From: Thermoplasmata archaeon
GTDB lineage: Archaea; Thermoplasmatota; Thermoplasmata; GCA-020350865
Length of the DNA: 64,000 nt
Reading direction: 5' to 3'
NCBI GenBank assembly: GCA_020348445.1
Contig: CP070751.1
Location: forward strand, 5,081,187-5,145,186
The translations under genes were made by a program, and so were the position numbers. Shown here one piece after another: positions 1 through 55,800 of this stretch (its first letter is position 1; every line of letters begins with the position of its first letter). The notes below the pieces were generated by a model. The model searched no databases. It was not told the origin of the DNA and saw only the letters and a program-made list of their open reading frames with translations.

Positions 1-1044
1 GATAAGAGCTTGGAATCGTTCAATAGTGCCTTAGAATTGACTAAAGGAAATAAGAATAAGATAGCGGAGATTAAGGCAAATATTGGGAGAATCTACCGGA
101 AAAAGGGAGAATATAATGAATCCATAAGGAAGTTAACAGAAGCCTTGGATTTAGTCAAAAATGAAGGAGGCAAAGAGGAAGCACTTGTCCTCGAAAAAAT
201 CGGCATGACTTATCTTAGGAGAGGAGATTACAAAAGAGCCTTTGAGTACTTAGAGAAGAGCCTAGAGATAGGGGAAATAATCGGTGACCAGAAAGATATA
301 GCAACTTGTCTCAAGAACATCGGTTGTATGTATTGGTCAAGAGGTGAACACGAAAAAGCTCTCAAGAACTTCGAGAAAAGCCTGAAGATACATGATAAGA
401 TCGGCGACCAGCCAGGTATTCATGCCTGCCTCAACAACATCGGCGAAGTGCATCGTATTAAAGGAGAATACGAAAGAGCCCTAGAGTGGTTGGAGAAAAG
501 CCTGAGGATAGGGGAGAAGATCGGCAACCAAATTGGTATTGGATTTAACCTCATCAACATCGGCAATGCGTACACCCAAATAGGAGAATATGATAAGGCA
601 CTTAAGCACTTAGAGAAAGGCCTTAAGATAGGTAAGAAGATCGGTGCACAAACTGTCATTGCCGATGGCTACTGGGTTACGGCTGAAACATATCTGAAGA
701 AAAGTGACATGAAAGGAGCATTAGATTTCTGCGATCGGGTATTCGATTTATCCAAAAAGACGGGTTCTAAGGAACATATCGCACACTCAAGGAGAATCTT
801 TGGTGGTATCTATTGCGAGCAAAAGAAGTGGGAAGAATCAATTGAGAATTTCCAGGAGAGCTTAAAAATTTTTAATGAAATTGGAATGAAGAATGAATTA
901 GGCAATGCCTACTATGAGTTCGGATTGATGTGGAAAGAAAAAGGAAACACCGAGAAGGCAAAAGAACATCTGAACAGTGCTCTTGATATTTTCGAGAAAT
1001 TGAATTTGGAGAAGCAAGCGGAAAAAGTAAGAAAGGAGTTATAA
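1..1044 (+). CDS. TPR-repeat C-terminal part of a probable STAND-ATPase/TPR protein (5' truncated by window edge)
   Basis: The frame is open from base 1 (gat aag agc ttg); the ORF-track start at 10 is only a TTG. About eight TPR-like repeats (e.g. LNNIGEVHRIKGEYERALEWLEKSL). Aligns by eye with the C-terminal ~345 aa of 1046-3856, including the ending EKVRKEL. Confidence 0.85.
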   Translation, partial: DKSLESFNSALELTKGNKNKIAEIKANIGRIYRKKGEYNESIRKLTEALDLVKNEGGKEEALVLEKIGMTYLRRGDYKRAFEYLEKSLEIGEIIGDQKDIATCLKNIGCMYWSRGEHEKALKNFEKSLKIHDKIGDQPGIHACLNNIGEVHRIKGEYERALEWLEKSLRIGEKIGNQIGIGFNLINIGNAYTQIGEYDKALKHLEKGLKIGKKIGAQTVIADGYWVTAETYLKKSDMKGALDFCDRVFDLSKKTGSKEHIAHSRRIFGGIYCEQKKWEESIENFQESLKIFNEIGMKNELGNAYYEFGLMWKEKGNTEKAKEHLNSALDIFEKLNLEKQAEKVRKEL

Positions 1045-1045
1045 A

Positions 1046-3856
1046 ATGGCAATCATTGATTCACATATACCATTAGTGGACAGAGTACTGGAGCTCGAAG
1101 AGCTGAAGACCCACCTCCACAACGCAACCAAGGGCCAAGGCAATCTTGTCTTCATCGCAGGCGAGGCTGGAGTGGGTAAAACCAGGTTGGTTGACGAGTT
1201 GAAAACCTATGCCCAATCTCAAGGTATCCAGATATTGCAGGGCTGGTCCTTATATGAATCCCTAACTCCCTACATGCCCTTTGTAGAAGCCTTGAGATCT
1301 GCAAATTTGGAACATCTGTTCTCACGGGAGGACCCTCCAAAAGTGGAGTGTGTATATCTTATAACGGACACTGGGTTATTGATAAAGGAAGTGCTGCGGG
1401 AGGAAACCAAACTAGATTCTACAATATTCGCAGGCATGCTTACAGCGGTCGGAGACTTCGTGAAGGATTCACTGACAATGCTCAGCGGGGAGGAAAAGAA
1501 TGAGGCACTCAATTCTCTTGGATATGAAAATTATCGGATTCTAATTGAAGTCGGTACGAATACAAATCTAGTTGTTATACTCACAGGAAAGGAAAACGAG
1601 TTTTTGATCAATGATATGAAAGAGGTTCTTGCTAACGTTGACCAGGAGTATGGAAATGTGCTAAAAGCCTGGGATGGTGATGACAATAGCGTTAGAGGAA
1701 TCGAGAATGTGTTAAAGCCACTAATCACCTCTGGAAAATATGACGGTATAGATTATGCAAAGGATGACCCAAAGATCAAGAGGAATAGATTATTTGAGAA
1801 CATCTCGTTAGGAATTGAAAGATACGCTAAAGTCAATCCTTCTATACTCTGCATTGAAGATTTGCAGTGGGCTGATCCTTCATCAATGGCACTCATGCAT
1901 TATGTAGCTCGAAATACACGAAAGTGCAATTTACTGATTCTTGGAACTTACAGACCTGAAGATGTTACTGCAATTAAGGAAGGGAAAGCACATCATTTGA
2001 TCGACGCAATGCAATTAATGAGCCGTGAGGATTTATATCAAATGATTGAATTGGAAAGGTTGGAAGAAGATCATATGGATGAGATGCTTACATCGCTTTT
2101 GGGCAAGACTGATTTCACAGATGAATTTAAGAAACAACTTTATAAAGAAACAGAAGGCAACCCATTTTTCATGGTATCACTCATCAGGATGTTGATTGAA
2201 GAAAAAACTATCGAGATGAAAGATGATGTTTGCACTCTCACGAAAGACTTAAAAGAAGTGCATATACCTTCGAAGGTGCACGATGTAATCATACGGAGAC
2301 TGAGTCGAGTGAAGGAAGAGAGGAGAGAAGTTTTAGATATTGCGGCGGTGATAGGTGAAGAGTTCACATCGACCTTATTGGCAAACACGACAAAACTCGA
2401 AAAAGTTCACTTGTTGAAGCAATTAAGAACCTTGGAACAAAGCCATAAACTGATTCGTTCATTCGGGCAAAAATACAAATTCGATCACGCAAAGATAAAA
2501 GAGATATTGTACCTCAAAATTCCCGAAGAATTGAGAATGGAATACCATACAATAATTGCAGATTCTATTGAAACCCTAAACAAGGACAATTTGGATGATA
2601 TGGTTGAAGACTTAGCATTTCACTACTATCATTGCAGGAACAGGGAAAAAGCCCTTCCATATCTCCTCAAAGCAGCGGAGAAGGCGAAAAAGGATTATTC
2701 AAATGAAGAGGCAATAAGGTTCTACAATGAAGCCCTGGAATTAGAAGAAGATGAACAGAAGAGGAGGGAAATATTCGAGGAAATAGGTGATATTTATGGG
2801 TTGATTGGAGATTATAATAAGAGCATAGAATCTTTAGAATGTGGACTGGAATTAGCTAGACAAAAGAATATAATAGCAGAAATCAAAGTGAAGATTGGTA
2901 GAATTTGTCAAAAAAAAGGAGAATACGACGATTCCATAAGAATAAGCACTGAGGCACTTGATTTGGTAAAAGGTGATGAATGCAAGGAGGAAGCGGAGGC
3001 TCTCGCTGCAATCGGTAATGTTTACCAATTCAAAGGAGAAAACGACAGAGCTCTCGAATATTTCAATAAGAGCTTGATGATAAGGGAGAAGATTGGAGAT
3101 CAAAAGGGAATTGCACGCATATTCAATGGTTTTGGTATATTACACGCAGATAAAGGGGAATACGACAACGCCCTTAAGGAATTCGAAAAGAGCTTAGAGA
3201 TAAAGAAAAAGATTGGTGACATACGGGAAATTGCCAAATCCTTCAACAATATCGGCCTTATGTACAATCTTACGGGAGACCTCGATAGAGCTCTGGGATA
3301 TTTCGAAAGGGGCTTAAAGATGCTTAAGAAGATTGGCGACTTGCGTTTAATTGGGGTCACCTTAAATAGTATTGGTGAAATGCATCTTATTAAAGAACAA
3401 TATGACGAAGCTATTAAAAATTATGAAAAGAGTATGGAGATTTGCGATAAGAATCAGATTAGAAGACCGGCAACTTACAATTATTGCGGACTTGCGGAGG
3501 CATATTATAAAAAAGGGAATCTTAAGAAAGCCTTTCATTTCTGTAATATGGCCTACGATTCATCCAAAGAGATTGGTGTCATGGAGAATGTTGCACACTC
3601 AAAGAGAATCTACGGCATGATCTATCGAGAGCAGAAGAAATGGGAGGAATCTATTGAGAATTTCGAGGATAGCATCAGAATTTTCAACGATATTAAAATG
3701 GAGAGGGGGTTGGGAAAATTGTATTACGAATATGGGTTGATGTGGAAGACTAAAGGGGATTCTGAGAAGGCAAAGGAGCATCTGAATAAAGCACTTAATA
3801 TCTACATGAAATTGAAGTTGGAAAAGCACGCGGAGAAGGTAAGAAAGGAGTTATAA
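1046..3856 (+). CDS. STAND-class (AAA_16-like) NTPase with inserted longin-like domain and C-terminal TPR array
   Basis: Walker A GEAGVGKT, Walker B LCIEDLQWAD, sensor GTYR and the STAND GxP motif EGNPFF are present. A ~130-aa insert (aa ~99-228) lies between Walker A and B. TPR repeats start at about aa 550. GGAG RBS; starts 1 nt after the upstream stop. Confidence 0.88.
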   Translation: MAIIDSHIPLVDRVLELEELKTHLHNATKGQGNLVFIAGEAGVGKTRLVDELKTYAQSQGIQILQGWSLYESLTPYMPFVEALRSANLEHLFSREDPPKVECVYLITDTGLLIKEVLREETKLDSTIFAGMLTAVGDFVKDSLTMLSGEEKNEALNSLGYENYRILIEVGTNTNLVVILTGKENEFLINDMKEVLANVDQEYGNVLKAWDGDDNSVRGIENVLKPLITSGKYDGIDYAKDDPKIKRNRLFENISLGIERYAKVNPSILCIEDLQWADPSSMALMHYVARNTRKCNLLILGTYRPEDVTAIKEGKAHHLIDAMQLMSREDLYQMIELERLEEDHMDEMLTSLLGKTDFTDEFKKQLYKETEGNPFFMVSLIRMLIEEKTIEMKDDVCTLTKDLKEVHIPSKVHDVIIRRLSRVKEERREVLDIAAVIGEEFTSTLLANTTKLEKVHLLKQLRTLEQSHKLIRSFGQKYKFDHAKIKEILYLKIPEELRMEYHTIIADSIETLNKDNLDDMVEDLAFHYYHCRNREKALPYLLKAAEKAKKDYSNEEAIRFYNEALELEEDEQKRREIFEEIGDIYGLIGDYNKSIESLECGLELARQKNIIAEIKVKIGRICQKKGEYDDSIRISTEALDLVKGDECKEEAEALAAIGNVYQFKGENDRALEYFNKSLMIREKIGDQKGIARIFNGFGILHADKGEYDNALKEFEKSLEIKKKIGDIREIAKSFNNIGLMYNLTGDLDRALGYFERGLKMLKKIGDLRLIGVTLNSIGEMHLIKEQYDEAIKNYEKSMEICDKNQIRRPATYNYCGLAEAYYKKGNLKKAFHFCNMAYDSSKEIGVMENVAHSKRIYGMIYREQKKWEESIENFEDSIRIFNDIKMERGLGKLYYEYGLMWKTKGDSEKAKEHLNKALNIYMKLKLEKHAEKVRKEL

Positions 3857-3857
3857 A

Positions 3858-4733
3858 ATGGCAATTAAAAAGAAAATCGTCCTTTTGGGCGATAGCGCTG
3901 TCGGCAAGACCAGTCTCATCCGAAGATACGTTTTCAACCAGTTCAAAGACTCCTACATCGCCACAATAGGAACCAAGATAACAAGAAAAGAGCTAAAAAT
4001 CCAAAGACCTCACCATTCTGTGGACCTCACCTTCGTGATATGGGATGTAATCGGTAGAGAAGGCTACCATGGCTTGCATGCCAGGACCTTTGCCGGAATA
4101 TCCGGTGCCATTCTGGTTGCTGACTTGACACGGAAGGAAACCTTAGAGAACCTGGAGCGATATTGGATTCCTCTTCTTCTCAAAGTCGTGGATAATGTCC
4201 CTTTAATTTTTGCTTGTAACAAATCCGATTTGGTAGGTGAGTACGAGTTTGAGCCAGAGGACATTACCAAGATGGCAGAAAGATACAACGGACGCATTGC
4301 ACGCATCCTCCCAAAAGGACTGTCTATCTCATATTCCACAAGTGCTAAGACAGGGAGCAATGTGGAACACACATTCGAAAGCCTTGGACACCTTCTGGTT
4401 TCCAGCTTCGATCTACAGGACCCCGTAAAGGAGCTTTACCAGAACGTGATTGCAATGGGCATTCACAGATCATCTGATAAGACAACGCCTATAGGAGCCC
4501 TTGATTCAATTATAATCGATTTCTGCGAGGGTTTTAAGGATTCCAGGATATCCATGATGATCCTGCGCCAGGAAATCGCAAGATCGGGTCTTGACATCAA
4601 CAATCCCACCAAAGCGGGAATTCTTACTGTGGTGGAATACCTAGCTGAAGCAGAGAACGAATTCAAGGATGAGAAGGAAGTTATTGATAACATGGAAAGA
4701 AGACTACAATGGGCTCAGGGTATAATTGAATGA
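3858..4733 (+). CDS. Rab/Ras-like small GTPase with ~110-aa C-terminal helical extension
   Basis: G1 GDSAVGKTS, G2 YIATIG, G3 WDVIG, G4 NKSD, G5 TSAK. No CAAX motif. Starts 1 nt after the upstream stop. Confidence 0.92.
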   Translation: MAIKKKIVLLGDSAVGKTSLIRRYVFNQFKDSYIATIGTKITRKELKIQRPHHSVDLTFVIWDVIGREGYHGLHARTFAGISGAILVADLTRKETLENLERYWIPLLLKVVDNVPLIFACNKSDLVGEYEFEPEDITKMAERYNGRIARILPKGLSISYSTSAKTGSNVEHTFESLGHLLVSSFDLQDPVKELYQNVIAMGIHRSSDKTTPIGALDSIIIDFCEGFKDSRISMMILRQEIARSGLDINNPTKAGILTVVEYLAEAENEFKDEKEVIDNMERRLQWAQGIIE

Positions 4734-4816
4734 ATCAGAAATGAGAATTTCGTGTGGATCTTTGCGGAGTTCATTCTGACTTTTTATCGTGGAATTTTTC
4801 GTAAACCTGGGGTACA

Positions 4817-4837
4817 TGTGGTCACAAATAATTATAA
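4817..4837 (+). promoter_or_regulatory. TGTGGTCACA near-palindromic operator plus TTATAA TATA-like box upstream of the RHH gene
   Basis: TGTGGTCACA at 4817-4826, 5-nt spacer, TTATAA at 4832-4837. Same geometry as 5228-5248. Confidence 0.55.
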
Positions 4838-4936
4838 GAGTGCGGCACCAATTGATGGTTGTAAGAGAAATATTCTCGTTAATTTAGGTTCACATTATTA
4901 CCACCTTATAGAATTGGCGGTTTCGGAGAAGAACGA

Positions 4937-5128
4937 ATGACCCTAAAAGAGAGAAAGATAAAAACCCTTAAGATCAGGATCGAAACAGAGCTTCTGGAGC
5001 GTATCAAAGAGGAAGCTCAGAAACAGGATACAGATTTATCCACCTATGTAAGGTGGTGTCTTAGGACAGGGTTGTATCTGGAGGATCTGAGCCAATTTCT
5101 TCAATCGAGAATCGATGAGAACAGGTGA
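4937..5128 (+). CDS. Small ribbon-helix-helix (CopG/Arc-like) DNA-binding protein
   Basis: 63 aa with an N-terminal alternating strand (TLKIRIETE) followed by two helices (LLERIKEEAQKQ, DLSTYVRWCLR). Confidence 0.7.
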   Translation: MTLKERKIKTLKIRIETELLERIKEEAQKQDTDLSTYVRWCLRTGLYLEDLSQFLQSRIDENR

Positions 5129-5217
5129 AGGTTATTTGATTATAATTGTACCCTCTATAAGAATTTATAAGTTTTAATCGAGGCAATTTGGAAATTAAGG
5201 AAACTCTTTTTTTTAGC

Positions 5218-5273
5218 TGTGGCCACATGTGGGCACAGGAGATTATATATAATTATCGGATGGCGTGGCCACA
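5218..5273 (+). promoter_or_regulatory. Three TGTGGNCACA-type operator sites flanking a TATA box upstream of the NosD-like gene
   Basis: TGTGGCCACA 5218-5227 (perfect palindrome), TGTGGGCACA 5228-5237, TTATATAT 5243-5250, CGTGGCCACA 5264-5273. Confidence 0.65.
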
Positions 5274-5407: not shown

Positions 5408-6709
5408 ATGAGAAAAGCCGTAGCATATTTGATAGTGTTTGCCTTGGCTGCAATGGTATTGGCCACAGTTCCTATGTCCACTTCTGCTGGGTATGTTGGG
5501 GATGTTACGATCCTTAAGAATGGAAAAGTGGATCCGGCAAATGCGCCTATTTACGTTTCAGGATCCATATATACAATGACGGATGATATCACAGGGACCA
5601 TAACCATCGAAAAGTCCGGAATCACACTGGATGGTGCAGGTTTCACAGTAGGAGGTTCGGGAACAGGCAATGGAATATATCTTGAAGATGTGAACGGAGT
5701 AACCCTCATGAACCTGAATATCCATGGATTTTTGGATGGAATCATGATGATATCTTCCAACCACAATACAATAAAACAAAATACAGTGTCGCAATGTGTT
5801 GATGATTGTATTGATCTGAAAGGCAGCGATGGCAACACTATCAAAGAAAACATGATAACAAACAGTGGCCAAGTTAATATTGGCGATACCACCGATGAAT
5901 TATATGCAAATGGTATATTCCTTGAAGATTGTGATGATAACACCATAAAGGAAAATACAGTTTCCTATATCATAGATGACGCAATCTATCTGATATATTC
6001 AAGCGATAACACGGTAAAAACGAACATAGTTACAGATAGTACCTGGGGTATTGTCGCAGAAATGTCAAGCCATAACAATATAATAAAGGAAAACACAGTT
6101 ACAGATATGAGCTCAAATAGCATTGTCGTAGCCCTTAATTGTTTTAACAACAATATATGCCATAATGTAGTCTCCAATGCTGTATGGGGTGGTATTGCGG
6201 TAGCTAGCAATGCCAACAACAATATGGTAAAGGAGAACACCCTTTACAACACGAGAATTGGTGTTATGGTTTTCATGTCCAGTGGAAATTGCATTTGGGC
6301 CAATTCGGTTTCTGGTTGTATTTGGGAGGGAATCCGACTGCAATTTTCAAACGGAAACACGATTAAGGGAAACACATTGGAGCACAACTATCGAGGTATC
6401 CTGCTTATCAGGAATCCAGCAGGTGGAAGTAACCTTATAAAAGAGAATTCTATAAGGGAAAATGATGTTGGGATGATCCTCAGTTATAATTCATACGACA
6501 ATGTTGTTTACCACAACAATTTTGTGGCAAATGGAAACCAAGCAATTGACAATGGCATAGGAAATTGTTGGGACAATGGCGCTGAGGGCAACTACTGGAG
6601 CGATTATTCAGGGATGGATATGGATGATGACGGAATTGGGGATACCCCTTACTATATCAATGGTGTGGCAGGTTCCGCAGATAATTATCCATTAATGAAT
6701 CCTTGGTAG
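5408..6709 (+). CDS. Secreted right-handed parallel beta-helix (NosD/CASH-type) protein
   Basis: Signal peptide MRKAVAYLIVFALAAMVLA. Many NxIxxN/GIxL beta-helix repeats. Typical terminal GNYWSDY...DDDGIGDTPY...DNYPL motif. GGAGG RBS. Confidence 0.85.
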   Translation: MRKAVAYLIVFALAAMVLATVPMSTSAGYVGDVTILKNGKVDPANAPIYVSGSIYTMTDDITGTITIEKSGITLDGAGFTVGGSGTGNGIYLEDVNGVTLMNLNIHGFLDGIMMISSNHNTIKQNTVSQCVDDCIDLKGSDGNTIKENMITNSGQVNIGDTTDELYANGIFLEDCDDNTIKENTVSYIIDDAIYLIYSSDNTVKTNIVTDSTWGIVAEMSSHNNIIKENTVTDMSSNSIVVALNCFNNNICHNVVSNAVWGGIAVASNANNNMVKENTLYNTRIGVMVFMSSGNCIWANSVSGCIWEGIRLQFSNGNTIKGNTLEHNYRGILLIRNPAGGSNLIKENSIRENDVGMILSYNSYDNVVYHNNFVANGNQAIDNGIGNCWDNGAEGNYWSDYSGMDMDDDGIGDTPYYINGVAGSADNYPLMNPW

Positions 6710-6852
6710 TGGCAGATAAATCATCAAGCTTAAATGCGAAACTCAAACCTTCTTCCTTATTTTTATAATTTTTATCTTCGTATTTTATATATCCTTCTTT
6801 TAACAATAAAAATTAAGTTAAATGATTCAGTTTCGGGAATGGAGATAAGATC

Positions 6853-7641
6853 ATGGAAATAGTGGACCTTTCAGAGGAACACGAACAATTGTACTTCCTC
6901 TGCCTCGAAGATTGGTCAGATGAAATCAAAGAAGCAGGAGAACACAAAAAGCTCTGGTACAACAGAATGAAGGACAAGGGTCTTCGGGTAAAGCTCGCCA
7001 CGGACGACAAGGGTGAGATCGGAGGGATGATACAATACCTACCCATCGAGGAATCCTTTGTTGAAGGCAAGGACCTTCTTTTTATAAACTGCATATGGGT
7101 GCACGGATACAAACAGGGAAGGGGGAACTTCCAGAAGAAGGGAATGGGCAAGGCTCTAATAAAAGCAGCCGAAGAAGATGCTAAAGAGCAAGGTGCCAAG
7201 GGAATCGTGGCCTGGGGTGTTTCCCTGCCTTTCTGGATGAAGGCCTCGTGGTTCAAAAAACAAGGGTACGAAAGAGTGGACAAGATGGACATCTCGATTC
7301 TTCTATGGAAACCTTTTTCTAATGATGCTGAGCCTCCAAAGTGGATCAAGGTAAAGAAAAAACCCAAGAAACTCCCTGGCAAGGTGACTGTGTATGGCTT
7401 CATAAATGGATGGTGCCCTGCACAGAATTTGGTATTTGAAAGGGCAAAGCGGGCAGCCTCCGAATTTCCAGACAAGGTGGAATTCATTAGGATAGACACC
7501 TCAAACAGAGATGTCTTTTTGGCCTGGGGAATGGTTGATGCACTGTTCATTGACGACGTCCAGATAACAACTGGTCCGCCTCCGTCCTACAAGAAGATAA
7601 GAAAAATAATCAAGAAAAAGGTGAAGAGACTAAAGAAATAA
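6853..7641 (+). CDS. GNAT-family N-acetyltransferase with C-terminal thioredoxin-like (YoaP-like) domain
   Basis: Acetyl-CoA motif A in INCIWV...FQKKGMGKALI. C-terminal GWCP motif in a thioredoxin-like segment. Confidence 0.75.
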   Translation: MEIVDLSEEHEQLYFLCLEDWSDEIKEAGEHKKLWYNRMKDKGLRVKLATDDKGEIGGMIQYLPIEESFVEGKDLLFINCIWVHGYKQGRGNFQKKGMGKALIKAAEEDAKEQGAKGIVAWGVSLPFWMKASWFKKQGYERVDKMDISILLWKPFSNDAEPPKWIKVKKKPKKLPGKVTVYGFINGWCPAQNLVFERAKRAASEFPDKVEFIRIDTSNRDVFLAWGMVDALFIDDVQITTGPPPSYKKIRKIIKKKVKRLKK

Positions 7642-7666
7642 ATATGATGCTAAAATAATGTGATCA

Positions 7667-46825: not shown

Positions 46826-49800
46826 TTACCTATCGTCCTCAGGTTCTCCCATGGTGTCCCTGTGTGTGGCTGGTAAATTGCCTGCCTGTGGATCTCTTGG
46901 CCCGCCGTGTTGTAATCCCCATCGATCATCCTTCTGGTCTGCAAGGCCCAACTCGCCATCAGATTCTACAAGGGCCTGATCGGCTCCACAGGCCTCGCCC
47001 AGGGCCATGAGGAACCTAACAAGATGCGGGGATATCAATCTATCTGTCTCAGGATATCCGAACGGTGCATATGGTGCAATATAGCTGTTGAATTCTCCTA
47101 TCCAGTCAAAGACCCGGTCCCCACCTGTATTGAATATCATCACATCAAGACCGCATCCACCGAAGACGAAATCCCTGTCTGCAAATTCGGGTGAATCAGG
47201 CTCGTTGTTGAGGCCACCTTGTGAGTCATGATTGTCGTCTGCATTGATGACATCGTCACCCAATCCACCGAACATGCGATCGTTCTGGGTTCCGCCAACT
47301 ATCCAGTCATGGCCGTTATCTCCGAACATCCTGTCCTTACCGTCTAAGATCTTGGTGCCGTTACCATCAACGGCCTCGAAATTGAGGAAGAATCCAACAA
47401 TCTTCGTGCGTGGATTCTCTGCATCGTAGAAGGATATCTTTCTTGTTACAGGATCGTAAGGCAGCGGTGTTGTGTTGGTTATTGGATCGCTGTTATAGAA
47501 ATCAGGCAATGCTTCGGCACCCAACATTCCATCATCACCTGCTCCACCGTGCATCCAGTCATTGCCAAGACCGCCATACATGATGTCGTTTCCGCCGTAT
47601 TCAAAAGCCGCAATGTCAGCGACTTTCTTGAGCCTTCCTGTGATATCAACCCAGGCACCAATAAAGGGACCAGGCAATTTGATGAACTTCTCTTTGAATG
47701 GTTTGGTTAATCCGTAAAGCGGCTCAGTCTCACCGTTTCTTGAGGTGCGGATCCTGCCATCGTCACCCATCATGCCATCCTGGCCATTTCCACCATACAT
47801 CCTATCATGGCCACTCTGGCCGTAGAGATCGTCGTCCTGTCCCTCGCCAAATATGACATCGTTACCCACCATACCGTGTATGAGATCATCACTGGCCTCA
47901 CCGTGAATCAGATCATCTGTTCCGATGTCGCTTGCACTTCCGCCTGGAGTGTAGTCAAGAAGCTGAATTGCCCTTGGAATGATGGTCACATTGCCGTAGT
48001 TGTCATAAGTAAATGTGAGGAAGTCACCGCTGTATTGTCCGTTTGTACCCACGATGCGGAATATATTGCCATTGTCTCCGAGTATGTAATCTGAATCCAA
48101 TGCATGACCGTCATCTGATTCATCACCTGGATCGTATCTTGCAATACGGGTTCCTGCTCCACCGAATATGGTGTCAGAATCGTCGGGTCTCAGGCTTGAA
48201 TCAGTGAGACCGAACAGCTCTGAGCTTCCGCCAACTATGTCATCCTGGCCATAGTCACCATAGATAAGGTCCTTGCCGCCGTTGCCCTCCATGTAATCAT
48301 CGCCGTCATCTGCATTCTCCACAGAAGGATCGGTGGCATTGATGAACTCAGAAACTGAGGCGTCACCCTGCATTAGGTCGTCCCCAAGCTCGCCGAACAT
48401 GACATCCTCGTGCGGTCCCCCTGCCATGTAATCGTTGCCGTATGTGTATGGTGTGGGGCTGTCGCTGTGGTCCAAAAGTGTGGTATCGCGACCCCTGGCA
48501 CCGCTTGGATTAGGCTGGTGGGTGGAAGTAACGTCTGCATCGTCATTTTCATCGTACAATGTGGTGCCCTCCAATGAACGGATGCGCGGGCTCACAGTGT
48601 CGTATCTCCTGAGAATTATGCAATTGTCTCCTGCCATCACATCATCCTCCGAGCCTCCGTCCATGATATCGTTTAGACCTGGTCCAACATCGAGCTCATC
48701 GATTCCGCCCACGACGTTATGGCCACCGATCATGTCGTCGTCATCCTCATTGCCGAACATGTCGTCGTCGCCTTGCTGGCCCAGCATTATGTCATCGCCT
48801 TCGTTGCCGTACATCAGATCGCCGTCACCGCCATCGGATGCGGCAGTGTATATAGCGATGAAGATGAACGTCGGAACAGGCAGGGTCGAGAGATCCAGTA
48901 ACATATTGGGCTTTCTTTCCACCCTGGCATGGTCACCGAAGAGCAGGTCGTTGTGTTCGTGGCCGTACATCGTATCATCAGCAGTTCCACCGAATGCGAT
49001 ATCATTCTCAGAACCGCACAGTATCATGTCACTGCCACCGTCATTGGGGAATGTGGCAATAATAAGATCCAGGGTCGAAGTATCGGGTTCTGAACTGTCA
49101 ACAGATGTTAATACATAATCGAGAAGGCCGTTGTCGCCAAGTATGATATCCATATCGGCATTTCCCTTGAGATGATCACCGTAAGCGCCGCCGAGAATTA
49201 TGTCATCCTGATCGTTTCCTTCGATGGTGTCGCTGCCGCCTATTGCGGGATCAGTTGTCTTGATTTTTTCTATGAGCTCTCCTGGCTGTGTGATATTGCC
49301 ATTGTCACCAAGGATTATATCCTCCCCACCGTGACCCCAGATATCGTCACCAAATGCACCGCCTAAGATCTTATCATTATCCTCGTTACCCTCGATGGTG
49401 TCGCTGCCCCCTATACCAGGATCAGTTGTCACTATCAGATCGAGGGTGTTTGCATCGCCGTCAAAGACCATGTCCAAGAATCCGTTGTCACCTAGAATCA
49501 CATCCTCGTTTAGATTGCCCCAGATTAAGTCACCCTCGGCCCCTCCAAGGATGTAGTCATCCCCGTCATTGCCTTCGATTGTATCGTTGCCGCCTATTGC
49601 CGGGTCTGTGGTCTCGATGAGCTCTATTATCTCACCGGGCTGTGTTACCCTACCGTTGTCACCAAGTATCAGATCGTTATTTTCGTGGCCCCAAATGTAG
49701 TCCCCGTACGGGCCACCCAGTATGGTATCCTCTCCTTCATTGCCTTCGATGGTATCGATGCCACCAATGGAAGGATCTGTGGTCTCGATGAGATCCAGGG

Positions 49801-52800
49801 TGTCAGCGTCACCATCCACGACAAAATCTAGCCTTCCGTTATCGCCGAGAATGACCTCGTTGCCCAAATTGCCCCATATGAAGTCACCAGCAGCACCACC
49901 CAGTATCTTGTCATCATCGTCGTTTCCTTCGATGATATCGCTTCCACCTGTGGCGGGATCGGTGGTTTCTATAACTTGAATTACCTCATCTGGCATGGTG
50001 ATCTTACCGTTGTCGCCGAGGATTATATCATTATCATCGTTGCCCCATATATAATCGCCGGCTGTTCCTCCCAGTATTATATCATCATCGTCCTGGCCGT
50101 AAATGGTGTCGTTGCTGCCGTATGATGGGAAAATGGTTTCGATCATGTCGATTACACCACCCGGCATCGTAAGTTCTCCGTTGTCCCCAAGTATCACGTC
50201 ATCATTGTCATTCCCTTCAATGTAATCGCCTCCAGCACCGCCGAGAACGATGTCCTCGCCCTCGTCACCTCTTATGGTGTCGCCGCTGCCCAAATCAGGT
50301 TTGGTGGTATTGATCATATCCAGGGTCGTGGGATCACCATCACCACCGCTGCCGTTCGCAAGGTTGTATTTTAAAATGCCCTCGTCGCCAACAATGATGT
50401 CGTTGCCTGTTGCGCCGTCAAGATCGTCCCCTGCGACACCACCAATTATGACATCGCTTTCCTCGTTGCCCTCGACTGTGTCATTGCCGCCGTCTTCAGC
50501 GACGGTGTCGGTAGCCTCGATTATTACGACGATACCATTTATTAGGTCTATCCTGCCCTGGTCACCGATTATGATATCCTCCCCAGGATCACTTGATGGA
50601 TCTTGATCAAGTGTATCATCACCGTATATGATATCACCGGCGTCACCCCCTAAGATCGTGTCGTCCACTTCACCGCCTGATATTGTATCGACTCCGCCAG
50701 GAGCGGGTAAGATATTGTCCGTCGTAAGTATAAGATCTAGAGTGGACCTGTCTCCATCACCTGTATTATAGTTCAGCAAACCGCTGTCACCGAGAATGAT
50801 GTCGTTATCCAAGCCTCCTATCAGGTCGTCATCGCCAACGCCGCCTAAGATAACGTCAGCATTTTCACTTCCGTTGATATAATCATCGCCGCCTGTGCTA
50901 TTATCGGTGTCCGTGGTTTCGATTAAGGTGACCTCAGATGTTTTATCATCTGGAACAGGGACAAAGTCAACACGACCGTTATCGCCGATTAAGATGTCGT
51001 CTCCGTCCGCTCCCAACTCGTCGGCATCTCCGAAGATGTCATCCTCCCCTCTACCGCCGATAGCTATATCTTCACCCTCGCCGCCATAGATGGTATCATC
51101 ATCGCCTGATCCTAGATCTGTGGATTCAAACAACTCTATGAGAGATCCGCCCATGGTATCCTGGTAATCGAAGTCGAACTCACCGTTATCTCCTATCAAC
51201 TTGTCGTCACCATCACCACCGTTCATGGTATCCTGACCAGGACCGCCCAGCAGGATATCGTCACCCACATCACCGTTCATGAAATCGTTTCCTATGGTGG
51301 TATTGCGCACTGTTTTGATGAGGTCGTAATTCAGTGTTAGCTTGTTGGGAACCAAATAGACCTCGCCGTCGTCGCCGAACATGACATCGTTGTCGGCATT
51401 TCCCTTCACCAAATCATGGCCCGCATTGCCGTACAACCTGTCGTTTCCACTTCCTCCATAAAGATCGTCATTACCCTCATCACCGTATGCGATGTCAGAG
51501 CCGCGATCGCCCCATATCCAGTCGTTATTTGCACCGCCGTGGAGCTCGTCGTTTCCATCCTCGCCAAAGATCCAATCGTTACCATCACCGCCTGTTAGGT
51601 TGTCACCGGCTGCTGTGCCATATAACGGGAATCTCGTGATAGGATGACCTGTGGCATTTTCTTCGAATTCCTGTGACGTCTTATTGTAATCAAATGAGGA
51701 ATCGCCCCAGATGGTATCTGCTCCTCCTCCGCCATGGATCCAATCGGGAGCGCCTCCGCCGCTTAGGAAATCGTCACCTCCCTCACCTGAGATGTTATCG
51801 GCATCAGCGTCACCTGTTATATGATCCTGACCTCCGAAGTCAGGATTATCGGGATACATATCAGGTTTGCCGTTGCCATTTGTATCAAGGCTGAAGGAAT
51901 AACTAGAAACAGTGTACTGGAACGAGGAATCTCCCCATATCCAATCCTCACCATCCTCGCCTCGGACGATGTCTCCATTATCACCGCCTGCAAGGAAGTC
52001 ATCTCCTGCTCCGCCGAAAATGATATCGGCTTGTTGACTTCCCCTGAGGGTCCAGGGCTCCCCTGACACAGCTTGAGAGGCATCACCGCTTATCACATCA
52101 TCCTCAGATCCACCCTCCAGATAATCTTTGCCACCGTTGCCAATTAGTATATCCTCGCCCTTCTCGCCGTATAGATGGTCGTTTCCTGGTCCGCCGACCA
52201 GAACATCTTCACCAATACCACCCCATAGCTCTGCAACGCCATCGCCGGCTATGAGAACATCATTGCCTGATCCCCCTACTAGTTCAGCTGTGATGGAAGA
52301 CGTATCCACACCCGACATATCGACGATATCGTTACCTTCTCCGCAATCGGCCATTACCTTTTTCACACCTGAATATTCCTGTGGACCGTAGGTCGTACCT
52401 CCCAAGGTGGCAGTCACCTCCACAGTATCTCCTGACTTCAATTCCAATATGAATTTCTCAGAATCATCTGTTGTATGTCTGTAAAGCCGGTCCTGTGCAA
52501 ACTCACCCATATTGAGGCGGAGCTCACCGCTATCCTCGTCGACCTTTGCAAGAATTGGATCCTTTGGACATGTGTAGCTGAATTCAATCAAAGGCAGCGA
52601 AGGTCCAAAGTACCATGTTTTCTCCCACAGACCCCAGAGTGCCTCAACAAAGGCGAAAAGACGCGCCTCAACCTTTCCACTAACATCGAAGATACAGATC
52701 AATCCCAGCGGGAACGAAAGCTGCTTGATTCCATTGAGTATGTTGCCCCAGATCTCCTCAATCCTCACCTTGCCGTCTCCGTCTGGATCATTTAAGTTGA

Positions 52801-55800
52801 AATCGATTGTAGCGTAAATTCCGCCGCCAACACCAGCCTTTGCTACCACGAGGTTCAGAACTGCAGCACCACTGATACCACCATAGATAGTGACCTCTGG
52901 AATATCGGCGCCGGTATCCAAATCTAAATCTCCCACATAAAAGCCTTTGAGCAGATCAAGTGGGTGCTTGAATCCTCCTGCTGCAAATTCCTGAAGTCCG
53001 TATGTGTCGTAGCCAAAGGACAGGTCGATTATGACCCCCAACGAGCCTGTGATTTCAGCACCCAGCCCGTCCCAAATTGGGAAGTACTGGCTGTACGTGA
53101 AATCAAATATGAACTTGGGCATGTCATAGACCACGATGTCAGCAGGCCTACCCAGTAACAGGCCAAATATCTGTCCCGGATCTTCAAATATCGGGAAGCT
53201 CCAACCTCCTCCTTCCTTTGTTGTACTGCTTGCAAAGGACTTGGTTGCAGGCTTAGCACTGCTTCCATCAAGTGCACTTCCAAGTGAGGAATCGAAATCG
53301 AAGTTGGAAAGTGCGCTGCTGAGTTCCTCAAAGCCCGCACCCAGGGGCAGGGATTGACTGGAGGGAGTATTTCTGATTTCATCAAATACACCTTCATCTG
53401 TTAGATCGGGAGCATCTCCATCATCCCCGCCTAAGCTGAAGCTGCCAAAGACAATGACGATATCACCTGCGTCTGTTGGAATGGAATTTATGAACGTGAT
53501 GAGATCTGCCAATGCATAAATGAAAGCTGGATCCACAACACCGAACATCCCTGCTATGTCGATTAACGTGATGGTCTGTCCCGCCAAATCGGATATAACT
53601 GGAATCCTGGAAGTAAGAATGTCCACAAGAGGCTGCAGTGGTTCTGTTATCTGCTGTATCTCTTCGACAATGGGACCAAGAAAGTCCGAGAAGAACGAGC
53701 CGAGATTGAGTCCCACATTGGTGAAGTTGATCCACGGATTAGATGGATGCCTATCAAATGGGCTGGATGCAGAATTGTTGACACCATCTCCAAGACCCCA
53801 TCTCAAGTAGAATCCTGCCTCGATGGATGGCCACTTGCCTCCGCCTACAATTCCCAATCTGAGGTCAAGATCCAGGTCGGCCTGAACTCCCCAGGAGAAA
53901 TCGAAATCCATGGATGGTATCTCGCCAAAGGACAGCCTGTCATCATCGCCACCGCCCTCGACGTCCACACTGAACCATCCATACAGGCTCTCCTTGTCAG
54001 GATTTTCCTGGGTTACATCCAGGTTCTCTACGTCCAGCTGCAAAAACAGCAACTTGCCTGTGAGATGATCCATTAGTGTCACACCGAGGCCTATATCAAT
54101 TATGCTGGTGAGGTATTTAGAGCCAGTATGTGGATAAACTGTTGTACCATTGAATTCATCTGTAAATTCGTCCCAGGGTGTGGTATCAAAATAGAATCCG
54201 TCATCAAGGCTTATTCCAAAGACCAATAGGAAGTTCCAGGTGAATGCTATCTCTATCCCGCCGTCCATATCAAGGCCTAGTCCTGGTAGGCCGAAATCGA
54301 TCTCGGGGGTTTCCCAGGAGTAGCGGTCTCCCAGCCAAAGATTGAACTGTAATTCACTCCAATCATCAGCTAGATAGTACTGGACATCGCGGAAAGTGAG
54401 CCCGCCGTCAGTGCTGTTCCAGTTTTCATCCAGTTGCAGTATATCAAGTCCTGGGGGCCCCAGCGCATTGAAGATCGCCTCCCGAACTAGATCAATTGCC
54501 TTTTGTGGTGCATTTTCGATGAAATCCCGAAGCCATGGAATAACACTGTCGCGGACATCCTCTATGAATTCGGCTCCATCTGAAAGACTGTCCCCAATAA
54601 GGGGCAGGTCGATTTCGCCAAATTCCCCTGCCAGTATATCTTCCAAGATAGCAAGGAGCATGTCCAGGCCTTCAACCACCAGAAGTAGCATTTCTATGAG
54701 GTTTAGATCGTCTAAGTCAGGAAGCGCAGCCGTGAAATTGGGTGCTGAGTTCAGACTTGCATCCACCTTGATGTCGAATGGATCGCTCGTGCCCACCTCC
54801 ATTGAAATATTGACATTGAAATCCAGATTGCCGATGAAGTTGGACGCTGTCGGGAAATAGCATGGTAAAATGGCTCCTATTCCGGCAGATAGATTTGCCT
54901 TGAGGTTGTAAGCAGACAGGTTAAAGAGCTCAATCTTGTCTCCGTCGGTTGATGGATTTGGATCATCGAAGGCTGTGAGTATTAAGTACGCAGGATTCGT
55001 GTTGCTGGGATTTCCATCCTCATTGAAAACGGCATGACCGCCAGTTACGAATAAGCCAAATGGCCCCAAGGATGCTATGAAATTAACGTTGGAAGCGTTT
55101 GCGTAACCCTCGAGTCTTATTTCTGTGTTATCAAAAATATATACTGCAAAGTTCGAAAGATTAATTCCCATACCCAGTTCAACCTCAACCGAGAATTCAG
55201 CCTCAAGACCTGCTGCTCCGCTGAGATTAGCAAGACTCTGAAGGCTGGGGGGTAGGGATAGACCCAGTAGATCCAATAGGTCGATCTGTACTGGTAATGA
55301 TGCACTGTAGCTCGTGTCCCAAGTGATGTTGAAGCGCAAAATTGTACTGCTTTTAAATATGGAAAGGATAACACTCTCTTCATCATCGGTTGGTATTCCC
55401 AGAACCTCTTTAAGAAGAGTTAGGAGCTCCTGAGCAATGGAGGCATCCTCACTTGACAGCTCCTCAATAGCCAATAAAAACGGCTCAATAAAGTTCAGGG
55501 TCTCGTTCAGCGTGACGCCCAGAATAGGTATGGGTTCATCATAGAAATCGTACTTGCTGAAGTTAATAAGGAGATTGTAGATGCTTCGAAGCGCAGTTAA
55601 AACTGAACTGAAGTTCAAATCATCGAAGCCGTCGGCAATGGCCCCCATATCCAATGCCGTAACATCCAGGGTTGACATATTCGTGAAATCCTCCAGAACG
55701 ATAACGATCCTTGGATTACCCAACAACTCATTGGCAAGGCCTTGTATAGCATCAGGCAATTGAATGGAAATGTTGGAGAGTGTAAGATTCCCGTTGCCTG

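Follow-up and report, generated by a model that had tools for sequence, protein, structure and literature searches.

At the start of the window, by which we mean the whole 64,000-nucleotide stretch of Thermoplasmata archaeon DNA analysed here, we found two tandem STAND ATPase genes, STAND1 and STAND2, followed on the same strand by the gene of a Rab-like small GTPase, a ribbon-helix-helix (RHH) gene with a palindromic sequence behind it and the gene of a secreted beta-helix protein (Table 1). STAND1, a 937-aa STAND-longin-TPR gene, starts at genome position 5079417, 1770 nt ahead of the window. The junctions STAND1/STAND2 and STAND2/GTPase both read TAA-A-ATG and have a 27-nt text in common, with GGAG about 10 nt ahead of each ATG. 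These open reading frames and junctions agree with an earlier note on this DNA, which had described paralogous TPR-ending genes and a small GTPase spaced by 1 nt. Judged from the spacing, the STAND and GTPase genes may be translationally coupled. The DNA of the locus is contained in three public sequencing runs, all of them DNA runs from one sediment study, and no RNA run containing it is listed among the public runs. A 62-codon GTG frame between the GTPase and RHH genes (4752..4940) was not counted as a gene, because it has neither a Pfam match nor a conserved counterpart.

Table 1. Features of the cassette, in window coordinates
Feature	Position	Strand	Remarks
STAND1, 3′ part (TPR region)	1..1044	+	TPR_12 2.6e-54; full ORF found in genome
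STAND2	1046..3856	+	936-aa AAA_16 STAND ATPase with nested longin domain and C-terminal TPR repeats; conserved family
Walker A, GEAGVGKT	1160..1183	+	STAND2 residues 39-46; invariant in family alignment
Longin-fold domain inside the NTPase domain (predicted)	1334..1735	+	STAND2 residues ~97-230; AF2 model, pLDDT 75
Walker B, ILCIEDLQWAD	1844..1876	+	STAND2 residues 267-277
TPR sensor region	2726..3853	+	STAND2 residues ~560-936; most divergent part between STAND1 and STAND2
Rab-like small GTPase, Arg-type (DxxGR) clade	3858..4733	+	291 aa; Pfam Ras 1.2e-28
G3 motif, DVIGR	4044..4058	+	Arg67 aligns with Ras Gln61; Arg conserved throughout the 30 clade loci examined
Family-specific four-helix C-terminal domain (predicted)	4470..4730	+	conserved D..DFC, M, P, E
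Ribbon-helix-helix (CopG-type) DNA-binding protein	4937..5128	+	63 aa; PF12441 29.0 bits (cut-off 28), residues 5-43
Candidate RHH operator	5217..5273	.	18-nt palindrome GTGGCCACATGTGGGCAC (5219-5236) and further GTGGCCACA (5265-5273)
Secreted NosD/right-handed beta-helix protein	5408..6709	+	433 aa; NosD 8e-38, Beta_helix 2.7e-29; N-terminal signal-like helix

STAND ATPases with a nested longin-type domain

STAND ATPases are ligand-gated switches in regulation and immunity. STAND2 belongs to the AAA_16 (MalT-like) type, with both Walker motifs, a PF13191 match of 1.1e-19 (72 bits, cut-off 32.6) and C-terminal TPRs after a helical arm (TPR_12 4e-51 in 5 stretches; TPR_MalT 3.5e-14). The AAA_16 match covers residues 10-298, while the profile itself has only 167 positions. 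Walker A and Walker B are likewise intact in STAND1. The STAND is predicted to be soluble, with no TM-like segment. The two paralogs are 80% identical over residues 1-560, with 83-87% identity in the NTPase and longin part and 41-56% in the TPR parts, a divergence that fits two sensors feeding one GTPase. The STAND-longin-TPR family was present in 71 of 251 genomes from the class, and a single genome had as many as 65 first-look candidates; the family far exceeds the subset linked to a GTPase, a point absent from the earlier note.

The cassette STANDs have the AAA_16 NTPase, the helical arm and the C-terminal TPR sensor in common with STANDs of the MalT/AfsR and Avs/NLR types, and bacterial AAA_16 homologs align with STAND residues 8-560 at 25-32% identity. 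Known members of these types, however, carry an N-terminal effector (HTH, cyclase, kinase or nuclease), whereas the cassette family is without any, and Pfam found no N-terminal effector domain in STAND2. A second difference is the insert of about 130 aa between Walker A and Walker B, which is missing from bacterial AAA_16 homologs and also from two paralogs in the same genome. When genome contigs were searched with the STAND alignment, most of the matches were bacterial AAA_16 proteins without the insert, which shows that the insert is lineage-specific.

Avs and NLR systems, too, are built from a STAND ATPase and a TPR sensor, and the cassette could accordingly act against viruses or mobile elements, with the TPRs recognising invader proteins, the GTPase responding and the RHH protein being an antitoxin-like partner. 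The strong expansion and tandem duplication of the STAND family, which evolves fastest in its sensor part, the patchy distribution across genera, the match of the RHH protein to the CopG antitoxin family and the presence of HEPN/MNT or DUF234 ATPase genes near some loci are consistent with such a role. We nevertheless consider it very unlikely, as the sole PADLOC matches were generic TPR models hit by the STAND, with neither the GTPase nor the RHH protein matching any model, a nuclease, protease, TIR, SIR2 or pore-forming effector is missing, and the genes flanking the cassette in the window (for the secreted beta-helix protein and an acetyltransferase-family protein) do not make a defence island. 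The defence role envisaged in the earlier note is thus unsupported.

The AF2 model of the insert shows in DSSP the element order b-b-a-b-b-b-a, with no helix ahead of strand 1 (E14-22, E27-33, H40-62, E72-75, E78-84, E88-95, H100-122, then short helices). Its top VIA match was TRAPP Trs23 (2j3t_D; Z 12.7, 130 residues aligned), and further longin proteins matched with Z scores of 12.0 (VAMP7), 11.9 (Fuzzy), 11.8 (Sec22b) and 11.3 (Ykt6). Roadblock proteins reached Z 10-11 over shorter alignments of 102-109 residues, and because this gap in Z is just about 1-2, the longin call over Roadblock leans also on topology and aligned length. The comparison of the predicted structure supports a longin-type fold for the insert, in agreement with the longin insert proposed earlier. 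At the level of sequence, Pfam gave no family for the isolated insert at E up to 10, the Robl_LC7 profile (PF03259, COG2018) did not match the insert of the window, and a profile of 21 insert paralogs met only chance matches to designed proteins among PDB sequences. Among these 21 paralogs, one matches Robl_LC7 (E 0.0084) and one Fuz_longin_1 (0.0026). In the JGI annotation some homologs are labelled 'Roadblock/LC7/MglB'.

The matches of the insert include proteins that were solved together with GTPases, namely Fuzzy-Rab23, Mon1-Ccz1-Ypt7, TRAPP and MglB-MglA. The best structural matches are eukaryotic longin GEF platforms (Mon1-Ccz1, Fuzzy-Inturned/CPLANE and TRAPP Trs23/Bet5), with VIA Z scores of, for example, 11.9 for Fuzzy-Rab23 (9rs9_A) and 10.6-10.8 for Mon1-Ccz1; sequence identity is just 8-16%. 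In the eukaryotic platforms paired longins bind a Rab-type GTPase, and the tandem paralogs STAND1 and STAND2 could pair likewise. Among eukaryotic longin GEFs we know of none that lies within an NTPase domain or is under the control of ATP. The genome of the cassette also encodes single-pass giant surface proteins (1600-5200 aa) whose cytoplasmic tail consists of this same longin domain, with genes directly next to those of Gln-type GTPases. A longin domain of this kind is paired with small GTPases in three different architectures.

An Arg-type Rab-like GTPase and its linkage to STAND genes

The GTPase carries the motifs G1 (GDSAVGKT, residues 11-18), G2 (T36), G3 (DVIGR, 63-67), G4 (NKSD, 121-124) and G5 (SAK, 162-164). 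The earlier note had correctly read G1, G4 and G5 as intact and DVIGR as a G3 motif with Arg for the catalytic Gln. GTPase paralogs have Q at the position of R67, and in the tree the GTPases with DxxGR group into a single clade (SH-aLRT 97) within the DxxGQ paralogs. The protein has a Ras-superfamily G domain with G1-G5, and Rab proteins are its best matches: the top PDB sequence matches were Rab21 (1.2e-18), Rab11, a Thorarchaeota Rab (4.8e-18) and Rab5, and the model of the GTPase gave VIA Z scores of 20.8-22.4 to Rab3C (22.4), Sec4, Rab9 and Rab32. Two Rab features are missing, the switch II Gln (DTAGQ) and the C-terminal prenylated Cys motif. Since the C-terminus (...WAQGIIE) holds no Cys, the GTPase is without a CAAX motif, as had been remarked before.

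Behind a disordered linker (184-203), the C-terminal 90 aa or so are predicted to fold into four helices (211-287); a helical domain had been proposed here earlier, with a length of about 110 aa. Among 65 representative clusters, this domain was found only at the end of GTPases of about 270-300 aa or in shorter, possibly partial proteins. Pfam gave no family for the isolated domain at E up to 10, a profile of 30 such domains found nothing below E 0.02 among PDB sequences and Pfam, and the ESM Atlas yielded no usable match. In a fold search with the whole GTPase model the G domain accounted for the matches, and among those listed NFeoB (3a1s_A) was the sole one to reach into the C-terminal domain; we set it aside, because its superposition (Z 15.5, but an rmsd of 7.3 over 209 residues) is too loose.

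Pfam Roc matches residues 6-124 of the GTPase at 7e-24, but the Ras/Rab match is stronger, and Pfam found no COR domain in the protein, whose C-terminal domain is just about 90 aa long. The term 'Roco-like' used previously holds only for the Gln-to-Arg change, which is common with LRRK2; a COR match is missing in Pfam, and the best match is Rab. In switch II of the LRRK2 Roc domain, the residue equivalent to Ras Gln61 is an Arg (R1398), as it is in the cassette GTPase; a 2026 preprint (PMC13345514) describes this as unique to LRRK2 among Roco proteins and as a difference from classical Ras-family GTPases. Unlike LRRK2, the cassette GTPase shows no COR domain in Pfam and has no LRR or kinase context, and its Arg arose independently, within an archaeal Gln-type family.

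Is the pairing with a STAND gene a common feature of these GTPases? A neighbouring STAND-longin-TPR gene on the same strand, in either order, was present at 18 of the 30 Arg-type loci and at 2 of 127 for other small GTPases, counts that overstate independence because the loci are related to one another. They support a linkage that is specific to the Arg-bearing clade, and the neighbourhood of STAND(longin)-TPR and GTPase genes, on whose conservation the earlier note had staked its idea, is indeed conserved. In at least nine loci, the distance from STAND stop to GTPase start lies between -4 and 39 nt. A neighbouring STAND is missing at 12 of the 30 Arg-type loci, where a different longin-domain protein can stand beside the GTPase (L011, L234), and at 6 of the 30 the vicinity lacks STAND, RHH and longin genes alike. 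GTPase and RHH genes occur without a STAND in at least five loci, and none of the five loci with GTPase-then-STAND order has an RHH gene. Among the more distant STAND-longin-TPR members sampled, 1 of 15 had a small GTPase in the available flank, so a GTPase encoded in cis is not necessarily the partner of every longin insert. A search for STAND-GTPase fusions among longer proteins gave four matches with GTPase-family Pfam domains only and no AAA_16 or TPR, which is weak evidence.

These exceptions could be explained by co-regulation without any contact between longin domain and GTPase. The insert would then serve the self-assembly of the STAND or another partner, and GTPase and RHH genes would be a separate unit that often shares the STAND operon; most members sampled outside the close clade do stand without a neighbouring GTPase, the unit is found without a STAND, and fusion proteins were not found. 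We hold this to be quite improbable, however, because the adjacency is specific to one GTPase clade, which has also lost the catalytic Gln, and because longin domains of this kind recur next to small GTPases in three architectures, a pattern that would be difficult to account for if the two did not touch.

The RHH gene, its candidate operator and the downstream gene

The RHH protein matches PF12441 above the curated cut-off, and homologs of it adjoin 13 of the 30 Arg-type GTPase loci. Behind the gene, the palindrome GTGGCCACATGTGGGCAC and the further GTGGCCACA flank an AT-rich TATA-like stretch. The palindrome pattern occurs three times in the 5.16-Mb genome, each time just 3′ of an RHH paralog, and lies 3′ of RHH genes in the loci L012, L013, L205, L234, L237 and L244 as well. 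The beta-helix gene downstream is the probable regulated target; L012 and L205 have NosD/beta-helix homologs at the same position, and the genes downstream of cassettes encode mostly secreted proteins (beta-helix, propeller-like, Laminin_G/PKD). Taken together, the RHH gene, the palindrome and the downstream secreted-protein gene suggest that the output of the cassette is transcriptional. None of these three elements appears in the earlier note.

The secreted products of the downstream genes would also suit a cassette that controls the cell surface or secretion, in which the GTPase, on longin platforms, positions or licenses the export of neighbouring secreted or giant surface proteins, the STAND is but one anchor among several with a longin domain and the RHH protein does no more than autoregulate the operon. 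The longin tails of giant surface proteins encoded next to Gln-type GTPases in the same genome agree with this, as does the finding that eukaryotic trafficking proteins are the best structural matches of both the longin insert and the GTPase. The GTPase, however, has no membrane anchor, the STAND is predicted to be soluble, the loci encode no secretion machinery, and the conserved RHH gene with its palindrome favours a step at the level of DNA. We therefore regard a role in surface or secretion control as unlikely.

A proposed relay and its relation to known systems

The observations made here are the domain folds, a linkage of the genes that is conserved and specific to the clade, their close spacing, and an RHH gene and palindrome that are likewise conserved; from them we infer physical interactions, a direction of the signal, a platform acting as GEF or GAP and a transcriptional output. 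Our best reading, at what we would call an even chance, is that the locus is a conserved three-tier archaeal signalling cassette, in which STAND sensors act on the GTPase via their longin domains, with transcription as the output. STAND1 and STAND2 would be cytoplasmic sensors whose divergent TPR arrays bind different ligands, and ligand binding would lead to ATP-dependent oligomerisation, by analogy with other STAND proteins. The nested longin domain would be the output of the STAND, in place of an N-terminal effector. Longin and Roadblock proteins bind small GTPases via a dimeric platform, and oligomerisation, possibly into a STAND1/STAND2 hetero-oligomer, could join the longin domains into such a GTPase-binding platform, which may serve the Rab-like GTPase of the same operon as its exchange factor or GAP. 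Because Arg replaces the catalytic Gln, the GTPase probably cannot complete a Ras-like cycle unaided and would need its STAND partner for it. It may hand the signal via its helical C-terminal domain to the adjacent RHH protein, which would bind the palindrome GTGGNCACATGTGGNCAC around the promoter of the downstream secreted-protein gene. More tentatively, and with considerable doubt, we suggest that the cassette represents a hitherto unknown class of archaeal signalling, an ATP to GTP to DNA relay in which a STAND/longin platform switches a Gln-less GTPase that controls an RHH repressor. If so, the longin-Rab pairing would be a general signalling device in non-Asgard archaea, including the tails of giant surface proteins.

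Small GTPases with a longin or Roadblock regulator are familiar from the control of polarity in bacteria and from membrane traffic in eukaryotes, where the longin-Rab pairing is known as an exchange-factor mechanism. The cassette resembles MglA/MglB and the conservon in that a prokaryotic small GTPase gene lies beside that of a regulator with the longin/Roadblock superfold (VIA Z 10.0-10.4 for MglB against the insert). The regulator of the cassette has longin topology and is nested in a STAND ATPase, whereas the Roadblock protein of MglB and conservon type stands alone. In the actinobacterial conservon (CvnA-D) a sensor histidine kinase is added to the GTPase/Roadblock pair (PMC4316618), whereas the sensor of the cassette is an ATP-driven TPR protein; STAND or TPR partners are not mentioned in the GTPase/Roadblock survey of the same paper. 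The cassette GTPase is also more Rab- than MglA-like (VIA Z 22.4 for Rab versus 17.5 for MglA) and differs from MglA by the Arg at the Gln61 position and the extra C-terminal domain.

In the literature searched, which included few subscription journals, we found no published STAND with a nested longin/Roadblock domain and no pairing of one with a GTPase, in line with the earlier note, which had called the module a candidate undescribed one. The cassette unites both kinds of switch in one operon, with a GTPase-docking fold in the ATPase core and a dedicated GTPase beside it. Should the two indeed be coupled, this would be a new way of wiring an ATP switch to a GTP switch, and Arg at the Gln61 position, otherwise discussed mainly for LRRK2 (Parkinson's disease), would have a further example that arose naturally and independently.

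Longin-Rab partnerships in Asgard archaea are usually seen as forerunners of eukaryotic trafficking. With its Rab-like GTPase and longin domains the cassette resembles Asgard archaea, which have Rab-like GTPases and many longin/Roadblock domains: Asgard Roadblock structures match the insert at Z 11.0, and the PDB sequences that best match the GTPase include a Thorarchaeota Rab. Provided that the coupling is real, such partnerships would also be expanded, and operonic, in Thermoplasmata. In the cultured Asgard archaeon MK-D1, GTPase genes are generally not operonic with putative regulators (PMC10933270), whereas the pairing described here is operonic, occurs in Thermoplasmata and comes with a STAND ATPase and an RHH protein. 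The conserved gene order of the cassette provides matched regulator-GTPase pairs that are directly testable and hard to obtain in Asgard archaea.

The cassette and the domain nested in its STAND proteins

The source genome is a single contig of 5.16 Mb with 41.5% G+C (the window being G000:C1:5081187-5145186); in NCBI, close homologs are labelled Thermoplasmata archaeon, Methanomassiliicoccales archaeon or the like, and the window DNA is present in sediment metagenomes of one study and in no listed RNA run. Three same-strand ORFs occupy window positions 1-4733, in agreement with the earlier note, which had described paralogous TPR-ending genes and a small GTPase on one strand with 1-nt spacing. 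Both junctions (STAND1/STAND2 and STAND2/GTPase) read TAA-A-ATG; the surrounding 27-nt text is the same in both, and a GGAG lies some 10 nt upstream. Judged by sequence, this spacing is compatible with translational coupling of the ORFs, and the shared text fits a tandem duplication that took the junction along.

Features of the locus and related loci (window positions unless marked genome)
Feature	Coordinates	Strand	Remark
STAND1 3' end, of 937-aa gene	1..1044	+	gene start at genome 5079417
STAND2, 936-aa paralog of STAND1	1046..3856	+	ORF
Small GTPase, 291 aa	3858..4733	+	ORF
CopG-type RHH gene, 63 aa	4937..5128	+	PF12441, 29.0 bits; cut-off 28
Palindrome GTGGCCACATGTGGGCAC	5219-5236		just 3' of RHH gene
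Further GTGGCCACA	5265-5273		with GTGGCCACATGTGGGCAC brackets an AT-rich, TATA-like stretch
Secreted NosD/beta-helix protein gene	5408..6709	+	after palindrome
Run of very large ORFs	19557-61648		1810, 1573, 1931, 971, 1627, 4940 aa (last at 46826..61648)
Third STAND-longin-TPR paralog	61993-63999	+	runs off window; 938 aa in genome
Two intact Arg-type GTPase genes	genome 5073489-5075462
Orphan GTPase C-terminal-domain fragment	genome 5078866-5079171		48% identity, one in-frame TAG
Giant ORFs with C-terminal longin-like domain	genome 3137498-3153037, 1165062-1172393, 3306262-3313539	-
Giant ORFs with C-terminal longin-like domain	genome 3706549-3717366, 4118138-4123045, 4675886-4687189	+
Gln-type GTPase genes beside giant ORFs	genome 3131528-3137291 (six tandem), 3703376-3706222 (three), 4123166 (one)

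STAND2 matches AAA_16 (1.1e-19) and TPR_12 (4e-51), with no domain N-terminal to the NTPase, and both paralogs retain intact Walker A (residue 39) and Walker B (residue 267) motifs. The AAA_16 match spans residues 10-298, far longer than the 167-position profile, and therefore contains an insertion of about 130 aa. Bacterial AAA_16 homologs align to STAND2 residues 8-560, yet are about 120 aa shorter, and the insert is likewise absent from two paralogs in the source genome. Modelled with AF2 from 21 paralogs (pLDDT 75), the insert shows the element order b-b-a-b-b-b-a, and Foldseek places it in the Roadblock/longin superfold. VIA-align ranks longin domains at the top, namely TRAPP Trs23 (Z 12.7, 130 residues aligned), VAMP7 (12.0), Fuzzy in its complex with Rab23 (11.9), Sec22b (11.8) and Mon1-Ccz1 (10.6-10.8), while the Roadblock proteins LAMTOR and MglB reach Z 10-11 over 102-109 residues. 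Based on this element order and ranking, the insert is a longin domain at the level of fold and topology, as had been proposed from the sequence. Sequence profiles scarcely detect either family in it, and JGI annotates some homologs as Roadblock/LC7/MglB. Identity between STAND1 and STAND2 is 83-87% across the NTPase and longin part and only 41-56% across the TPR part, as one would expect of sensors that differ in ligand.

A Rab-like GTPase clade with arginine in G3

The GTPase has canonical G1, G2, G4 and G5 motifs and reads DVIGR in G3, with Arg67 at the Ras Gln61 position; the motif reading in the earlier note thus holds, as does its C-terminal helical domain, predicted here as four helices (residues 211-287) after a disordered linker. 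Its best solved relatives by sequence are Rab21, Rab11, a Thorarchaeota Rab and Rab5, and by structure Rab3C, Sec4 and Rab9 (Z 21-22), against 17.5 for MglA and 15-17 for Arf proteins. The C-terminal domain has no match among Pfam or PDB sequences, and only 65 clusters were retrieved with it from 1.8 billion representative proteins; where the protein is about 270-300 aa long, it always lies at the C-terminal end, the remaining matches being shorter and possibly partial. The source genome holds 36 matches to this GTPase, about 19 of them full-length, i.e. with the family-specific C-terminal domain, and about 20 matches to the longin-like domain; for non-Asgard archaea, a survey from 2016 gave a single Rab-like copy per species (PMC4915359).

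A tree of 141 G domains unites the DxxGR proteins in one group (SH-aLRT 97), which sits within DxxGQ proteins bearing the same C-terminal domain, and Arg is thus a derived trait fixed in a single clade. According to a preprint from 2026, LRRK2 is the only Roco protein with Arg at the Gln61 position and differs in this from classical Ras-family GTPases (PMC13345514); the Arg of the archaeal clade represents a separate, independent instance.

An orphan GTPase fragment precedes STAND1 by about 250 nt (2 kb ahead of the window), and two intact Arg-type genes are found nearby (see table). The ancestral order may have been GTPase-STAND-STAND-GTPase.

Linkage, the RHH gene and a three-tier reading

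Is the neighbourhood of STAND and GTPase genes conserved? Among 30 distinct Arg-type loci with usable flanks (6 from the source genome, 24 from other genomes or metagenomes), which are kin, so that counts overstate independence, 18 have an adjoining same-strand STAND-longin-TPR gene, as against 2 of the 127 remaining small GTPases of the data set, one of which reads DVIGA and also lacks the Gln. The linkage suggested in the earlier note is therefore kept. The STAND gene comes first in 13 of the 18 (gap of -4 to 39 nt in at least nine, about 0.46 and 1.1 kb in two) and second in five (about 40-110 nt). Two further Arg-type GTPases, at L011 and L234, adjoin a divergently oriented gene whose product ends in this longin domain. 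The converse fails: of 251 sampled genomes of the class, 71 contain the STAND-longin-TPR family (up to 65 first-look candidates in one genome), and only 1 of 15 members 37-51% identical to STAND2 has a GTPase within the available flank. Cis-linkage therefore characterises a single subclade of STAND proteins and a single clade of GTPases. A search for proteins fusing STAND and GTPase found none.

The RHH gene, which the earlier note does not mention, has homologs adjoining 13 of the 30 Arg-type loci, some of these without STAND. With at most one mismatch, the 5.16-Mb genome contains three copies of the palindrome pattern, all of them directly behind an RHH paralog which itself comes after an Arg-type GTPase; with at most two, the pattern also follows the RHH genes of L012, L013, L205, L234, L237 and L244. 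NosD/beta-helix homologs hold the same position in L012 and L205, and different secreted proteins hold it in other loci. A surface or secretion role of the cassette is unlikely in our estimate, and co-regulation of the genes with no longin-GTPase contact about equally so.

The best-supported reading, to which we give an even chance, is a three-tier cassette. Beside the folds, the gene linkage and the palindrome, which we observed, we infer every contact between the proteins and the direction of signal flow. TPR-gated, ATP-dependent STAND assembly would bring the nested longin domains together into a dimeric platform of the kind that longin and Roadblock proteins use on GTPases; this platform would set the nucleotide state of the Gln-less GTPase, which via its own C-terminal domain would act on the RHH protein, the presumed regulator of the secreted-protein gene that follows. 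An NLR/Avs-like role in defence, which the earlier note raised as NLR-like, finds little in its favour, since PADLOC yields generic TPR matches only and a toxic effector is absent, and we regard it as slightly less likely than the two rival readings above.

Our literature search found related work (MglA/MglB, conservons, Asgard GTPase-Roadblock studies) and no description of a STAND protein that has a longin domain nested in it and a GTPase as partner. Compared with known pairs of a GTPase and a longin/Roadblock regulator, the regulator here is fused into a STAND switch and would be tied to an RHH output.

Variant cassettes and further longin loci

At L012 (genome G001, same genus), a 552-aa STAND remnant (6340-7999) without NTPase and longin parts lies 1 nt upstream of the orthologous GTPase (78% identity), and thus the cassette can decay while the junction stays. 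Near-identical cassettes (GTPase 75%, STAND 58-64% identical) at L013/L014 and protein P0196 lie on contigs labelled Hodarchaeales or Hermodarchaeota in NCBI, which could reflect mis-binning or transfer between Thermoplasmata and Asgard archaea. L141 (G088:C19) and G084:C14 carry tandem arrays of three to five STAND-longin-TPR genes; the L141 array ends beside a GTPase with DVIGA in G3, a separate STAND-linked case without the catalytic Gln, which a quick tree places inside a wider group that also holds the Arg clade.

The third STAND paralog of the window (35% identical to STAND2) is divergent from the 4940-aa ORF, and the roughly 6 kb of genome inspected downstream of the paralog contain no GTPase gene; none of the large ORFs at 19557-61648 matched the longin insert. 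Outside the window, giant ORFs of 1178-5179 aa end in the same longin-like domain at their very C-terminus (six are tabulated; further ones exist). Most combine a signal-like helix at the N-terminus with one TM helix directly ahead of the longin domain, and hence resemble surface proteins whose longin tail is cytoplasmic. Gln-type small-GTPase genes adjoin several of these ORFs, and the order of longin domain then GTPase recurs in metagenome loci L163, L169, L171, L185, L186, L188, L204 and L210.
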